Shown piece by piece: positions 2,091-56,970 of a stretch of DNA of 64,000 bases (position 1 is its first letter; the number at the start of each line of letters is the position of its first letter). The notes under the pieces are model-generated. The model had not been told where the DNA came from. It did no database searches and saw nothing but the letters and a program-made list of their open reading frames with translations. Origin of the DNA: Chloroflexota bacterium (lineage in GTDB: Bacteria; Chloroflexota; JAJPGV01). Where the stretch lies: assembly GCA_050695655.1 (NCBI GenBank), contig JBOGTU010000077.1:20397-84396 (forward strand), read 5' to 3'. Made by a program: the position numbers and the translations under genes.

Positions 2091-3377
2091 ATGCTGACCG
2101 CTGAAGAGAATGAGCTGTTGACGCGCACCAACGCGGGCACGCCGATGGGCGAGCTGTTCCGGCGGTTCTGGCTGCCGGCGCTGCTGCCCTCGGAGCTGCC
2201 GGCGCCGGACAGCGACCCCATTCGCTTTCGCATGCTGGGGGAGGATCTCATCGCCTTTCGCGACACCAACGGCCAGGTGGGCTTTCTGGCTAACGCCTGC
2301 CCGCACCGTGGGGCATCGCTGTTCTTTGGTCGCAACGAGGAGTGCGGCCTGCGCTGCGTGTACCACGGCTGGAAGTTCGACGTGACCGGCGCCTGCGTGG
2401 ACATGCCCAACGAGCCGGCGGAAAGCAGCTTCAAGCAGAAGATCAAGGCCACGGCCTACCCTGCGGTGGAACGGGGTGGTTTCATCTGGATTTACATGGG
2501 CCCCAGCGCCGAGCAGCCAGCCTTCCCCAACTACCAGTGGCTCAACCAGCCCGATGCCAGCTCCTACGTCGCCAGTAAGTGGCTGCAGGAATCCAACTAC
2601 TCGCAGGGTCTTGAGGGCAACATCGATTCCGCGCACGTGGGCATTCTGCACCGTACGCTGGCTCATCCCGTCTTCACCTCCGGCAACCTCCAGAGCGCGC
2701 AGGACGTGACTGTGGCCAAGGAAACGGAGTTCGGCTTCGTGTACGGCGCGCGCCGTCCCCAGCCGGACCAGAGCTACTACTGGCGCGTGACCACGTTCAC
2801 CATGCCCACCTTCACCCAGATCGCCAGCCAGTCCCGCGCGGGCGGTGGCCTGTTCGTGCTGCCACAGGACGACGAGCACAGCTGGTGGTTCACTATCAAC
2901 CCACCACGGCCGCCTGCTGGCGCTCCCGGTTCGCGGGACGCCGATTTCGGTGCGCTGCTCTCCGGCACCTCGATCGCCGATCCGGCCACCCTGGGCCTCA
3001 TTCCCGGCACCTTCAACCGCGTGCGCAACAAGAGCAACGACTACATGATCGATCGCCAGATGCAGCGGACCTTCAACTACACCGGCCTGCCCGGCAACCG
3101 CCCACAGGACCAGGCGGTCACCGAATCAATGGGCCCCATCTACGACCGCCGCAGGGAGCACCTTGGTACCAGCGACACCGCCATCATCCTCATGCGGCGC
3201 TACCTCATGCGGCTGGCACGTGACCTTGAAGGTGGCCAGCGGCCAGCGATGCTGACCTTTCCCGACCGCTTTCGTACCATTCCCATGGCCGTCAACTCGC
3301 CCGAGGGCGACTTCAACACGCTGTGGGATACGCACTACGATGCGTTTGCGCGGGAGTTGAACCTCACCCTGGGATAG
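2091..3377 (+). CDS. Rieske [2Fe-2S] non-heme iron oxygenase alpha subunit (phthalate dioxygenase/VanA/KshA-like class)
   Basis: Rieske motif CPHRG...(16 aa)...CVYHGW. Mononuclear iron motif NIDSAHVGILH. Start moved to ATG 2091 (MLTAEENELL), preceded by aggcgaggagacaag as RBS. The longer ORF from 2004 has no better support. Confidence 0.8.
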   Translation: MLTAEENELLTRTNAGTPMGELFRRFWLPALLPSELPAPDSDPIRFRMLGEDLIAFRDTNGQVGFLANACPHRGASLFFGRNEECGLRCVYHGWKFDVTGACVDMPNEPAESSFKQKIKATAYPAVERGGFIWIYMGPSAEQPAFPNYQWLNQPDASSYVASKWLQESNYSQGLEGNIDSAHVGILHRTLAHPVFTSGNLQSAQDVTVAKETEFGFVYGARRPQPDQSYYWRVTTFTMPTFTQIASQSRAGGGLFVLPQDDEHSWWFTINPPRPPAGAPGSRDADFGALLSGTSIADPATLGLIPGTFNRVRNKSNDYMIDRQMQRTFNYTGLPGNRPQDQAVTESMGPIYDRRREHLGTSDTAIILMRRYLMRLARDLEGGQRPAMLTFPDRFRTIPMAVNSPEGDFNTLWDTHYDAFARELNLTLG

Positions 3378-53351: not shown

Positions 53352-54377
53352 CTACACCACGACGTCGCCGCCACCACCGCGGATGACGACGATCTCATCC
53401 GCCTCTTCGAGCCGCCGGATGATCTTGACGATGCGCTGCTGTGCCTCTTCCACATTGCGCAGCCGCACCGGGCCGGACACGGCCATATCTTCCCGCAGCA
53501 TGTCCGCCGCGCGGGTGGACATGTTCTTGAAAATGCGCTCCTTCACGCCTTCGCTGGCGCCACGCACGGCCATGGCAAGCTCTTTGGCGTCCACCTCTTT
53601 CAGGACACGCTGAATGGACTTGTCGTCCAGCAGGGTCACATTTTCGAAGACGAACATGTGCTTCTTGATGTCTTCGGCCAGGTCCGGCGCATCCTGGTCG
53701 AGCGTATCCAGGATGTTTTTCTCGGTGACGCGGTCCACCTGGTTCATCACCTTCACCAGGTAGTCCAGTCCGCCCATCGTGGTGGTTTCCTGGGTGAGCA
53801 CGCCACCCAGCTTCTTCTCCAGCGCGGCGCCCACCACCTCCATGATGTCCGGGCTGGTGCGGTCCATGGTGGCGATGCGGCGGGCGACGTCCGGCTGGAT
53901 CTGCGCCTCCAGCGCCGCGAGAATGGCGGCGGACTGGATGGGTGTGAGGTTCGAGAGGATGAGGGCCAGCGTTTGGGGGTGCTCGTTCTGAAGGTAGCTC
54001 ACCAACTGCACGGGGTCGGCCTTCTTGATGAAGGCGAAGGGCGTGGCCTTCATGGACGAGGTGATCTTGTCCAGGATCTCGTCGGCCTTTTCTTTGCCCA
54101 GGGCGCGCATCAGCGCGTCTTTGGCAAAGTCCACCCCGCCGGAGCTCACGTATTCGTGGCCCAGGGAGAGCTGGTAGGCTTCCTCGAACAGCGCGTCGCG
54201 AACGGCCGGATCCAGCCGCTCCATGTTCAGCAGCTCAGTGGTGATCTTGTCGATCTCACCCTCGGGCATCACCTTCAAGATGCCGCCGCTGATCTCGGGG
54301 CCAAGGCCAATGAGCAGGCCGGCGGCCTTCTCCTTGCCGGTCAGGGTGGTGAGCGATGTGCTTGCGTTGACGGCCAC
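53352..54377 (-). CDS. fliG: Flagellar motor switch protein FliG (orphan)
   Basis: 341 aa. GKEKAAGLLIGLG...PEISGGIL. C-terminal torque-helix region (LLDDKSIQRVLKEVDAKELAMAVRGASEGVKERIFKNMSTRAADMLREDMAVSGPVRL). GTG start with [13 protein letters not shown]. Confidence 0.8.
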   Translation of the reverse strand: MAVNASTSLTTLTGKEKAAGLLIGLGPEISGGILKVMPEGEIDKITTELLNMERLDPAVRDALFEEAYQLSLGHEYVSSGGVDFAKDALMRALGKEKADEILDKITSSMKATPFAFIKKADPVQLVSYLQNEHPQTLALILSNLTPIQSAAILAALEAQIQPDVARRIATMDRTSPDIMEVVGAALEKKLGGVLTQETTTMGGLDYLVKVMNQVDRVTEKNILDTLDQDAPDLAEDIKKHMFVFENVTLLDDKSIQRVLKEVDAKELAMAVRGASEGVKERIFKNMSTRAADMLREDMAVSGPVRLRNVEEAQQRIVKIIRRLEEADEIVVIRGGGGDVVV

Positions 54378-54560
54378 GATGACGACCCCTCTCTCGCTGA
54401 GCTGCCGAGCTGCCCGAATCTTAGCGCCTGGCCCTACCCGCGCGCGCTAGTCACGCCGCGGCGCTAGGAGCCCTACCTTCAAGCATCGGCCAGAACACGC
54501 ATTTGGTCCACCGCCGGCTGCGCGCAGTGCCTGTTTCCTGCTTGATGTAGAGTCTCGCTC

Positions 54561-55277
54561 ATGGATGGAGAAGGGAATCCGCGTACGCTGGCCATCGACA
54601 TCGGCGGGACAGGGTTGAAGATGGAGGTCATTGACGTGAACGGGCAGCCGCTCACTCAGCGGGCGCGCGTAGTGACACCTCATCCGGCTAAGCCGGCCGC
54701 CGTCCTGGCCGCGCTCAAAGGGCTGCTCGCCAACCAGGGGACATTTGACCGCGTCTCCGCCGGTTTTCCTGGCGTGGTGGTGGACGGCGTCACCAAAACG
54801 GCGCCCAACCTGCACCCCTCCTGGCGCGACTTCAACCTGGCCGATGCCTTGCGGGAGATGACGCAGCGCCCGGTGCACGTGGCCAACGATGCCGACGTGC
54901 AGGGCTACGGCGACATCGAGGGCCAGGGCGTGGAGATGGTGCTCACCCTCGGCACCGGCCTTGGCTCGGCGGTCTACGTGGATGGCCGGCTGCTGCCGAA
55001 TCTGGAACTGGGCCACCAGCCGTTCGACCGCGGGCAAACCTATGAGGAGCGCCTCGGCAACGCCGCGCTGGACAAGGTTGGCCCCAGGCGCTGGCGCAAG
55101 CGCGTGCTGCAGGTGGTGCACCAGCTGGAGCCCATCTGGAACTACCGCCTGCTCTACTTGGGTGGCGGCAACGCGCGCCTCCTCCATAAGGGCGACCTAC
55201 CCGCCAACGTCCGCATCGCCTCCAACACCGCCGGCCTCCTGGGCGGCATCGCCCTCTGGCAAGACCGCGGCCGCTGA
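54561..55277 (+). CDS. ROK-family sugar kinase (polyphosphate glucokinase-like)
   Basis: LAIDIGGTGLK ATP-binding N-terminus and the ROK signature region. Confidence 0.6.
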   Translation: MDGEGNPRTLAIDIGGTGLKMEVIDVNGQPLTQRARVVTPHPAKPAAVLAALKGLLANQGTFDRVSAGFPGVVVDGVTKTAPNLHPSWRDFNLADALREMTQRPVHVANDADVQGYGDIEGQGVEMVLTLGTGLGSAVYVDGRLLPNLELGHQPFDRGQTYEERLGNAALDKVGPRRWRKRVLQVVHQLEPIWNYRLLYLGGGNARLLHKGDLPANVRIASNTAGLLGGIALWQDRGR

Positions 55278-55574
55278 GCCTACCCTTAATAGGCGGGTGC
55301 AGCGCGCCAAGGGGCTCTCGAAGGTCCCAACGTTCTACGGTAGTTATCCCGATGACACCAAGAATTGGGGCGCGTATAGGCCGAGTACCCACGCAGCCTG
55401 CACTTGCATAGCCCGCATGCGTAGCCCTTTCCACAAAGCCGATTCTTGTGGGTGATGGGCAAAGGTTGAGCACGATGCTTCGGCACGTGGAGTAGTTGAC
55501 TGGCGACCAGGAACTGCCTTACGATCATGCTCAGGAGATCAGTTCGCAGCGCGATCTTCCTGGGCGTGGAAATG

Positions 55575-55610
55575 AAACAGGCGCCCTCGGGAAGCTCAGG
55601 TGCCTGTTTT
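55575..55610 (+). terminator. Intrinsic-terminator-like hairpin (11 bp stem incl. one G-U, 13-nt loop) followed by TTTT, in a 440-nt ORF-poor gap
   Basis: AAACAGGCGCC-ctcgggaagctca-GGTGCCTGTTTT. No convincing upstream ORF; candidate sRNA 3' end or islet boundary. Confidence 0.35.
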
Positions 55611-55716
55611 CGGTAGGTACGAGTTCGACACCTAGGCTACGGCCTCCCGCTCAGAAACCAGGCTCCTCGGGAGGGGCTTACAGGGCTATGCCCACGCAGG
55701 CAAGAAAGGGACCGTA

Positions 55717-56016
55717 GTGGAACAGATCAGAGAGCCAGTCGAGGATGGACCTGTCGCCGATGTTTACGCTGATGCGATGGGATTGGCAGTCTCAGCGTTT
55801 ACCGTCACGCTGTTGTACAGTCAGGCAAGCTCCAGGCCGAATCAACCGCCCACGCTGAAGGCGCGAATCCGGATGAGTCCAGAGCACGCCAAGGTGATGG
55901 CCATCCTGCTGAAGAAGGCTATCCGGGGATACGAGGAACAATTCAGCGCACAGATAAACGTGCCGCCTCAGGTCCTGGCGGGGCTTGGTATTTCCCCGCA
56001 CGACGATTGGCTCTAG
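55717..56016 (+). CDS. DUF3467 family protein
   Basis: VYADAMGLAVSAFTVTLLYSQ and KARIRMSPEHAKVMAILLKKAIRGYEEQF. Lies in a lower-GC segment. Confidence 0.55.
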   Translation: MEQIREPVEDGPVADVYADAMGLAVSAFTVTLLYSQASSRPNQPPTLKARIRMSPEHAKVMAILLKKAIRGYEEQFSAQINVPPQVLAGLGISPHDDWL

Positions 56017-56028
56017 GCGTGTCCGGCC

Positions 56029-56358
56029 ATGACCGAGGGCGAATTGCTGTGTGACATCAGGGATGCCATTCGACGCTGTGGGCTTATCTACAGCGAGCAT
56101 GTGGCCCAGCGGATACTCGAGCGGAAACAGCCGAACCGGCTACAGATTGCCACGATCCTGACGACCATCACATCAGAGCTCCTTGAGCGTTATGTCCACC
56201 GGGGTGGGCCGGTAGCTCTTGTGCGCGGTTCCGCAGATGGTCGTGTAGGGCACGTGGTATGCTGCGAACCACGACCGGAGGTCTGCGTCATCACTGCCTA
56301 CTGGCCTTCTCCAGACCAATGGGACGCTGAGTTTAGACGGAGAGTGCAAGGCACATAG
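56029..56358 (+). CDS. DUF4258 family protein (putative toxin-like component)
   Basis: YSEHVAQRILERKQ...LLERYVHRGG...HVVCCEPRPEVCVITAYWPSPDQW pattern of DUF4258. 12-nt gap from the upstream gene; 2-nt gap to the downstream gene. Confidence 0.55.
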   Translation: MTEGELLCDIRDAIRRCGLIYSEHVAQRILERKQPNRLQIATILTTITSELLERYVHRGGPVALVRGSADGRVGHVVCCEPRPEVCVITAYWPSPDQWDAEFRRRVQGT

Positions 56359-56360
56359 CT

Positions 56361-56702
56361 ATGAACTGCCAAGCGTGCGGGGGCCACATGGAAGAACAAA
56401 CCACTCGGTTCTGCGCGTGTGAGAAAGCCATGCCGATCATTGTGGAAGATGTCCCGACTTACGTGTGTACCCAGTGCGGCGCGAAAGCGTTCAGCGATGC
56501 GACGCTGCAAATGCTGGAGCGCGCCACATCTGGCGCCGCACCATTGGCCAAGATGCTGACCCTCTTGGCCTATGACTTCAAAACGCTTGGACAAGAACAA
56601 CCAAATCCGCCGATTGTCTTCGAGTTCGACGGACTGCAGATGCCACCCGTTGCGTCGGCGACATTCGAGCTCCTCCCGCCGACAGCCGTACCGTTCGTCT
56701 AA
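56361..56702 (+). CDS. YgiT/MqsA-type zinc-finger protein (putative antitoxin-like DNA-binding component)
   Basis: MNCQACGGHMEEQTTRF...VPTYVCTQCGAKAFSDATLQMLE: the CxxC...CxxC YgiT-type zinc ribbon. Confidence 0.55.
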   Translation: MNCQACGGHMEEQTTRFCACEKAMPIIVEDVPTYVCTQCGAKAFSDATLQMLERATSGAAPLAKMLTLLAYDFKTLGQEQPNPPIVFEFDGLQMPPVASATFELLPPTAVPFV

Positions 56703-56928
56703 TTCATCAGCACCTCGAAACGCTCTGCGTCCGTAGTGTCGCGCGCGCTGCGGCGGCTCGTCGCCCCAACGCAGACGGGGCAGGTACTCGCGGTATTCCT
56801 GATCTGTCAAGCGCAGAATCGCCCGAAAGCTGAGAACCTGCTTCCCACGCATGTGGTCACGCTACTCCCCTAACTGATTCTCACGGGGATAATAACTGTT
56901 TACTTATGAAATAACGCCAAAATACCCC

Positions 56929-56957
56929 GTTGACTGTAATAGTTGCGCGCCATACAG
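56929..56957 (+). promoter_or_regulatory. Putative sigma-70-type promoter for folC: TTGACT, 17 bp spacer, TACAGT
   Basis: In the AT-rich gap. The -10 ends 13 nt before the folC ATG, implying a very short leader. Confidence 0.4.
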
Positions 56958-56970
56958 TGGCTGCCACAAC

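Follow-up and report, generated by a model that had tools for sequence, protein, structure and literature searches.

What is encoded by the DNA of lowest GC content in a 64-kb stretch of a Chloroflexota genome, and do the three small genes found there act together? The stretch (hereafter the window) comprises 64,000 nucleotides of contig JBOGTU010000077.1 from assembly GCA_050695655.1, positions 20,397 to 84,396 of the forward strand, and coordinates given below without a contig name refer to it. Between a ROK-kinase gene and folC, the window holds an islet whose genes encode, in order, a DUF3467 protein, a DUF4258 protein, and a protein with a YgiT-type zinc finger. The account that we favor, and to which we give somewhat better than even chances, is that the islet was acquired and specifies a ribonuclease (RNase) toxin of the BECR fold, a zinc-ribbon antitoxin that neutralizes this toxin by binding to it, and a DUF3467 protein that is co-expressed with the pair as a protein-binding accessory. 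The features on which the argument depends are the following.

55280-56898, no strand assigned: inserted islet, 1619 bp, absent from the related contig L016 of a metagenome-assembled genome (MAG)
55717-56016, plus strand: gene 1, DUF3467 protein of 99 amino acids (aa), GTG start, isoelectric point (pI) 5.6, match to PF11950
56029-56358, plus strand: gene 2, putative BECR-fold RNase toxin of the DUF4258 / Ntox49 type, 109 aa, pI 7.7, match to PF14076
56361-56702, plus strand: gene 3, candidate antitoxin of 113 aa, pI 4.5, match to TIGR03831
56899-56970, plus strand: native folC promoter region, conserved in L016; the right flank, outside the islet

An islet of atypical composition, probably inserted upstream of folC

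At 58.1% GC, positions 55278-56970 form the minimum among all 1693-nt stretches of the window. Such stretches average 66.1% GC with a standard deviation of 2.0%, so this one lies approximately 4 standard deviations lower. The GC content at third codon positions (GC3) is 62-68% in the three islet genes versus 84-86% in the flanking ROK-kinase and folC genes. The genes share one strand, and their coordinates leave gaps of exactly 12 nt between genes 1 and 2 and 2 nt between genes 2 and 3. A ribosome-binding site resembling AAGGGA is located six bases upstream of the GTG codon that begins gene 1. All three proteins exceed the curated cut-offs of the hidden Markov models (HMMs) for their families. 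An initial annotation, made from the sequence alone, had described the GC drop, the three closely packed small genes with these gaps, and the three domain assignments, and on each of these counts it was correct.

We set the limits of the islet by comparing L016 with the window through blastn and local alignment. This related Chloroflexota contig was found by scanning the genome collection for FolC, and its FolC is 88% identical to that of the window. Homology between the two stops at 55279, two bases past the ROK stop codon, and restarts at 56899; the intervening 1619 bp of the window correspond to an unrelated spacer of 154 nt in L016. The edges first assigned to the islet, 55278 and 56970, are thus replaced by 55280 and 56898. 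Similarly, an AT-rich promoter region that had been taken as one of the islet boundaries belongs instead to folC, since it is conserved in L016, which has no islet. Within this region, a consensus scan places a promoter-like site (TTGACT-17-TACAGT) at 56930-56958.

The atypical GC and GC3 values, together with the empty site in L016, support the earlier proposal of horizontal acquisition, in which the islet appears to have entered the DNA that separates the ROK-kinase gene from the folC promoter. Gain is favored over loss because of the composition, given that a single relative with an empty site is available. With regard to mobility signatures, no tRNA or tmRNA gene, integrase, transposase, or att sites were found, and the repeats are only short matches at chance level. 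The noncoding ends of the islet, 437 nt on the 5′ side and 196 nt on the 3′ side, hold no detectable genes; open reading frames (ORFs) in these flanks have no Pfam match, and nothing plainly coding is present in six-frame fragments.

What is in essence the same organism has been assembled a second time (GCA_050695635.1, contig JBOGTV010000239.1). This assembly corresponds to window positions 53741-56049 with 99.83% identity, and it carries the islet at least to 56049, where its contig ends. This 2.3-kb contig therefore terminates 21 nt into the DUF4258 gene, and the assembly break within the islet could stem from strain heterogeneity at this location.

The second gene encodes a candidate toxin

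The product of gene 2 matches PF14076 (DUF4258) with 27.6 bits against a cut-off of 25, a small margin, and covers the full profile (positions 1-71 of 71). By inspection of the sequence, it carries the motif Y21-S22-x-H24 followed by Arg28 and Arg32, and thus retains the Ntox49 signature of a histidine and a lysine or arginine. These are the residues reported as conserved for Ntox49 in a catalog of polymorphic toxins (PMC3482391), and a preprint equates DUF4258 with Ntox49 and places it in a colicin-like branch of the BECR fold (10.64898/2026.08.28.747851). The nearest metagenomic relative (L019) is 32% identical. It has the same Y21, S22, and H24, carries an arginine three residues past the histidine, and shares with gene 2 the C-terminal motif TAYxPxPDQWDAEFRRR.

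Published surveys bear directly on the gene arrangement. DUF4258 is listed among BECR-fold toxin families, and 17 natural fusions of DUF4258 to MqsA are known; the same 2025 survey names it as one of two BECR-fold toxin families that had not been described in the literature (PMC11980606). In a survey of Escherichia coli, the partners of DUF4258 genes are strictly downstream (PMC10790755). For the Synechocystis DUF4258 protein Slr1421, a verified small ORF that overlaps downstream (Ncr1610-sORF1) has been proposed as the antitoxin (10.64898/2025.12.20.695498). Genes 2 and 3 of the islet have the layout of a type II toxin-antitoxin system, in that they are co-oriented and adjacent, encode 109 and 113 aa, are separated by 2 nt, and include one toxin family. 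The charge polarity is also that usual for such pairs, with a near-neutral toxin (pI 7.7) and an acidic antitoxin (pI 4.5).

These HMM matches and surveys support the suggestion in the initial annotation that DUF4258 and the YgiT zinc finger resemble a toxin-antitoxin pair. The companion suggestion, that the block is functionally undescribed, needs correction in that the pair is not wholly undescribed: pairs of this type have been cataloged computationally. The islet fits a familiar type of selfish or defense module, with DUF3467 as the part that this type does not explain. The pair is a divergent member of a cataloged but experimentally uncharacterized kind, and it is the DUF3467-headed design that is new.

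The sequences of the pair are very divergent: a word-indexed homolog search with the toxin and the zinc-finger protein returned only self-hits. Exact look-ups yielded no contig. With tblastn, the same two proteins gave no match in plasmid (E ≤ 0.01) or phage (E ≤ 1) collections, and viral contigs scanned with either of them or with the DUF3467 protein of the window yielded nothing. One further contig from the metagenome scan (L021) was judged to be a spurious match.

A second relative of the toxin is informative regarding movement. In contig L020 (positions 630-1440), a DUF4258 gene is paired with a gene for a different 62-aa partner in a 667-bp cassette. On either side of the cassette is a copy of the last 102 nt of uvrA, and the two copies form a perfect direct repeat. 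This repeat looks like the footprint left when the cassette was inserted at the end of uvrA, and because the cassette is bracketed by the duplication, toxin cassettes of this sort appear to move. The L020 toxin gene is shorter than that of L019.

The third gene encodes an MqsA-type zinc ribbon that lacks a DNA-binding domain

The product of gene 3 matches the YgiT_finger model (TIGR03831) with 31.3 bits, where the cut-off is 20.2. A zinc ribbon of the MqsA type, whose two CxxC pairs are C3, C6, C36, and C39, occupies residues 1 to approximately 75. The full-length MqsA models are failed by this protein, which scores 15.4 bits against a threshold of 30 for PF15731 and 17.5 against 61.8 for TIGR03830, with both matches confined to residues 1-58. 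No helix-turn-helix (HTH) family is matched by gene 3. Because of these two observations, we do not classify the protein as MqsA.

A phage family model of 77 positions, phrog_29304, matches residues 2-71 with an E value of 8e-8. Since this match ends at residue 71, we regard residues 76-113 (LGQEQPNPPIVFEFDGLQMPPVASATFELLPPTAVPFV) as an extra tail. This 38-aa segment is proline-rich and acidic (pI 4.05), and it is probably unstructured.

Could these genes be an inactive relic, such as the remains of a decaying prophage or a fragment of a polymorphic-toxin and immunity locus? Toxins of the Ntox49 type are also found fused to MuF and secretion domains, both the DUF3467 protein and the zinc finger match phage families, and the HMM scores are marginal. 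The lack of mobility genes, att repeats, and tRNA genes, along with the 437-nt and 196-nt noncoding flanks that have no detectable genes, would also fit decay. Nonetheless, all three reading frames are intact and their products cover the profiles at full length, the key histidine and arginine residues and all four cysteines are kept, and identity with the second assembly is 99.8% over the shared 2.3 kb. On balance, we consider a relic to be decidedly unlikely.

DUF3467 heads three-gene cassettes in other genomes

The extra component is the protein encoded by gene 1, which matches PF11950 with 29.1 bits (cut-off 25). Its conserved positions are Y17, S54, K59, E73, and a C-terminal DW. An exhaustive HMMER search recovered 247 DUF3467 relatives at E ≤ 1e-3, all of them single-domain proteins of approximately 90-120 aa that share a helix with the pattern RMSxEHAKVMAIxLRK and the C-terminal motif LGISxxEDW. 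By tblastn at E ≤ 0.001, the protein has no match in plasmid or phage collections, and a degenerate DNA pattern for RMSxEHAK...DW produced a single chance match in viral contigs.

An AlphaFold2 (AF2) model of gene 1 built with the family alignment has a predicted local distance difference test (pLDDT) score of 94.4, and shows a three-stranded sheet, one long helix of 21 residues, and a pair of short helices. A Foldseek comparison of this model with the PDB and with viral models gave nothing significant; there is a weak, subsignificant similarity to COMM domains, which dimerize. A SecB-like chaperone identity for DUF3467 was also considered and found to be unsupported, since SecB is absent among the matches listed and Foldseek returned nothing significant. 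The family is acidic, with a median pI of 5.2, which argues for binding to protein rather than to nucleic acid.

Approximately 16 distinct DUF3467 neighborhoods were sampled. Those with the greatest likeness to the islet are three-gene cassettes. In two prophage contigs from IMG/VR (L040 and L041), a DUF3467 gene (41.8 bits) is followed by genes for a 128-aa PBECR2-like nuclease and a DUF2283 protein (40.5 bits). The three genes abut or overlap, and the cassette is located between genes for a CI-type repressor and a serine integrase. A homologous cassette in L034 lies after lysis genes, with a toxin that is 29% identical (E 2e-9) and a partner that is 35% identical (E 6e-13). In each case, DUF2283 occupies the antitoxin position 3′ of the PBECR2-like gene:

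L040, 3625-3867: DUF2283 gene
L041, 3625-3867: DUF2283 gene
L034, 4668-4928: DUF2283 gene

QseM, which binds protein and acts as an anti-activator of an integrative element, belongs to the DUF2283 family (PMC4755241). Two other contigs (L004 and L005) carry a cassette composed of DUF3467, a 96-aa protein, and a PIN protein with gaps of 1-5 nt, and in L015 a DUF3467 gene precedes a gene for Peptidase_M78.

The earlier proposal that DUF3467 is a third partner gains support from the homologous three-gene phage cassettes. The nuclease families DUF4258 and PBECR2 share the BECR fold, and neither the zinc ribbon nor DUF2283 has a DNA-binding domain. The predicted islet operon therefore looks like one instance of a recurring DUF3467-headed design. 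DUF3467 is probably a recurrent accessory of toxin modules. In the literature searched, no paper was found that describes such a three-gene design; DUF3467 is mentioned there in a single paper, only in passing, and DUF2283 in two.

If DUF3467 is an accessory, how might it act? One possibility is a chaperone-addiction mechanism like that of toxin-antitoxin-chaperone (TAC) systems, wherein DUF3467 would bind the proline-rich tail of the antitoxin and shield the antitoxin from aggregation or proteolysis, and a trigger that competes for DUF3467 would free the toxin. The acidity of the family, its sheet-plus-helix fold with weak COMM-domain similarity, and the presence of three genes in what appears to be a single operon are all consistent with this idea, as is the extension of the antitoxin by 38 aa beyond the approximately 77-aa profile of its zinc-ribbon family. 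However, the phage cassettes encode DUF2283 partners of only 80-86 aa that have no evident addiction tail, and the tail of gene 3 has no sequence similarity to the 96-aa partner in L004. We view this mechanism as unlikely.

A different possibility is that DUF3467 regulates its operon, as omega or PaaR do, and makes up for the missing HTH of the antitoxin by binding DNA or RNA itself. Its gene comes first in all cassettes seen, and the partner antitoxin-like proteins (zinc ribbon only, DUF2283, and the acidic 96-aa protein) have no recognizable DNA-binding domain. Moreover, in L015 it occupies the place 5′ of the Peptidase_M78 gene that usually belongs to an Xre repressor. Against such a role, acidic families with a median pI of this value are atypical of nucleic-acid binders, no HTH or ribbon-helix-helix (RHH) signature was found in DUF3467, its structural matches are below significance, and no operator-like repeats stood out upstream. 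A regulatory function strikes us as improbable to much the same degree.

Proposed mechanism and the evidence for and against it

Returning to the account that we favor, in which DUF3467 is a protein-binding accessory, we propose that the three islet genes form one operon. The DUF4258/Ntox49 protein would be a BECR-fold ribonuclease that arrests growth by cutting RNA. The product of gene 3 appears to be reduced to its 38-aa tail and the MqsA-type zinc ribbon, the domain with which MqsA binds its toxin, and it would bind and block the toxin. Neutralization by binding is suggested because of the homology to MqsA-type domains and the existence of DUF4258-MqsA fusions (PMC11980606). The toxin would be freed if the labile antitoxin were no longer replenished, as might happen when transcription is shut off, during proteolysis, or upon infection by a phage. 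DUF3467 would act by modulating the complex formed by toxin and antitoxin.

Several observations weigh against this account. For the toxin, the single-sequence AF2 model has a pLDDT score of 48.7 and is too poor to confirm the fold, and the scores of both the toxin and the DUF3467 protein exceed their cut-offs by just 2-4 bits. The nearest toxin relatives, in L019 and L020, have no DUF3467, and their partner is different and is not a zinc finger. The PBECR2 match in the phage cassettes spans nearly the whole profile (positions 18-119 of 120) with an E value of 1.2e-4, but falls under the gathering score. In gene 3, the lack of a DNA-binding domain leaves the customary autoregulation by the antitoxin unexplained. 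None of the three islet proteins has a match in PADLOC-DB at E ≤ 1, and the literature found holds no experiment on any DUF4258 toxin-antitoxin pair. Finally, most of the sampled neighborhoods show DUF3467 by itself, next to genes for terminase or portal proteins, or in the interval from rpoC to rpsL, and its closest homolog (P0004) stands alone, flanked by genes for a peptidase and a DUF1611 protein.

This last group of observations could also be read to mean that the islet comprises two independent units, namely an ordinary toxin-antitoxin pair made by genes 2 and 3 and an unrelated, phage-derived DUF3467 passenger that has no functional link to it. Such an interpretation is favored by every context in which DUF3467 is found by itself, beside a sigma factor gene, between rpoC and rpsL, or next to packaging genes, and also by the closest toxin relatives, which do without it. 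Yet only 12 nt separate gene 1 from the toxin gene, and both lie in the same inserted segment of uniform composition. Furthermore, there are at least three other lineages in which DUF3467 abuts or overlaps a toxin-like pair, and it is unlikely that this many would arise by chance from approximately 16 contexts. We regard the passenger explanation as somewhat unlikely, while recognizing that any partnership between DUF3467 and toxins is modular rather than obligate, because the nearest relatives of the toxin and of DUF3467 occur without each other.

If DUF3467 is indeed an accessory that works with the toxin and antitoxin, the islet might belong to a broader group. We tentatively suggest, as a rather doubtful extension, that DUF3467 marks an unrecognized family of tripartite cassettes, each with DUF3467 first, a BECR-fold nuclease (DUF4258 or PBECR2-like) second, and a small antitoxin that lacks DNA binding (YgiT or DUF2283) third, with variants that use PIN or M78-peptidase effectors, residing at the moron sites of temperate phages and in bacterial islets. 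As a sensor or adaptor, DUF3467 might release the toxin in response to a trigger, for which a portal or packaging protein of a phage and the machinery of transcription and translation are examples. DUF3467 also occurs beside the corresponding genes.

The islet is minimal and sharply delimited, and it joins DUF4258, DUF3467, and a zinc-ribbon-only antitoxin. It thus offers a concrete three-gene construct for probing the role of DUF3467, and for asking whether MqsA-type antitoxins that lack an HTH need a helper. Should DUF3467 turn out to accompany toxin modules generally, it would represent a new component class beside SecB-like chaperones. If it does not, the islet is another divergent toxin-antitoxin islet.

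Leader region of the predicted operon

The DNA upstream of gene 1 includes two features that might relate to its expression.

55496-55525, plus strand: sigma-70-like promoter candidate for the operon, TTGACT-18-TACGAT, a consensus match only (9 of 12 positions)
55575-55609, plus strand: hairpin in the putative 5′ leader, with an 11-bp stem that has one mismatch, a 13-nt loop, and arms formed by an A-tract and a T-tract

The initial annotation had interpreted this hairpin as a strong terminator with a T-tract that might represent a small RNA (sRNA) or the boundary of the islet. The hairpin does exist, but its strength as a terminator is not borne out. Among 200 shuffled sequences, 19 fold at least as well (z-score -1.29), and a terminator scan reported no site in this region. 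Intrinsic terminators have a GC-rich stem, a short loop, and a U-tract of at least five residues, whereas this hairpin has a 13-nt loop and 4 T residues downstream, three of which are paired inside the stem. Hairpins of equal quality number 22 in the window, or approximately one per 3 kb. A boundary role is contradicted by its location approximately 300 nt inside the islet and 3′ of the promoter-like site, and the sRNA interpretation is unsupported by these results and by an Rfam search, which identified no family in the islet flanks or leader. If anything, the hairpin is part of the 5′ leader of the operon.

The hairpin and the promoter-like site might still be combined into an sRNA of approximately 80 nt, or into an attenuator of the operon. 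The hexamer pair is located 50 nt 5′ of the hairpin, the arms are an A-tract and a T-tract, and the entire 439-nt leader (55278-55716) folds better than shuffled sequences, with a z-score of -2.8. Given the modest z-score of the hairpin itself, the negative results from the terminator scan and Rfam, and the abundance of similar hairpins, we consider either function to be very unlikely.

Other DUF3467 loci and neighboring genes

In phage packaging modules, DUF3467 genes are present between large-terminase or terminase-like genes and portal genes, directly 5′ of portal genes, or 5′ of terminase genes. These loci belong to several unrelated prophage-like or viral contigs, as follows.

L015, 1368-5764: packaging module with DUF3467
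L027, 1816-5139 (also L028-L030): packaging module with DUF3467
L011, 3001-4656 (also L012-L014): packaging module with DUF3467
L031, 1-1647: packaging module with DUF3467
L032, 964-2625: packaging module with DUF3467
L024, 3001-4124: packaging module with DUF3467

Lone or housekeeping sites include one after pheA and one beside a sigma-70 gene. In a record filed as “Bacteriophage sp.” (L039; MT836236.1:8602-14811), the gene order is rpoC, DUF3467 (2923-3249), rpsL, and rpsG, and this record looks like a fragment of a bacterial chromosome.

Near the islet, a full-length gene for the FliG flagellar motor switch protein is present at 53352-54377 on the minus strand, just upstream of the ROK-kinase gene. 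A 184-aa ORF on the minus strand (56298-56852) is antisense to the whole zinc-finger gene and also covers part of the 3′ flank. There is a loose resemblance to an IS1595 zinc ribbon in the first 50 codons of this ORF, and its start (56703-56852) was considered as a remnant of such an element; this idea was dropped, as the segment has no Pfam match at E ≤ 1. The ORF is probably a spurious artifact of high GC content.

Comparison with known systems

The closest counterparts to the islet are systems in which a DUF4258 gene is followed by an MqsA-type partner, as cataloged in PMC11980606 and as exemplified by Slr1421. They share with the islet the same Pfam toxin family, the toxin-first order, and a zinc ribbon like that at the N terminus of MqsA. 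The islet differs by adding DUF3467 upstream and by a 113-aa partner that has a proline-rich tail and no HTH, and the sequences are very divergent.

Polymorphic toxins that pair Ntox49 with Imm22 (PMC3482391) have the same predicted fold and the conserved histidine and lysine or arginine. In contrast, the islet toxin is a stand-alone protein of 109 aa that has no secretion, MuF, or RHS carrier, and its partner is a zinc ribbon rather than Imm22.

TAC systems, of which PMC11980606 cites the HigB-HigA-SecB-like type, resemble the islet in having three genes, an acidic accessory, and an antitoxin with a C-terminal extension. However, SecB is absent among the structural matches listed for DUF3467, the accessory gene in the islet is first rather than last, and binding to the tail is a proposal made here.

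The MqsR/MqsA system of E. coli likewise places the toxin gene first, uses an antitoxin with an N-terminal zinc domain (CxxC...CxxC), and includes an RNase toxin from the wider BECR/RelE-like group. In the islet, the toxin is instead DUF4258, with no MqsR family detected by the Pfam scan, and the antitoxin is HTH-less. Because gene 3 has no HTH DNA-binding domain, autoregulation in the style of MqsA cannot apply to it.

Three-component operons with a separate regulator provide a final comparison. Both omega-epsilon-zeta and paaR-paaA-parE have a small extra first gene and an antitoxin that lacks a DNA-binding domain, and the islet shares these two characteristics. It departs from them in the acidity of DUF3467, which carries neither an RHH nor an HTH, and in the arrangement of its genes in the order accessory, toxin, and antitoxin.

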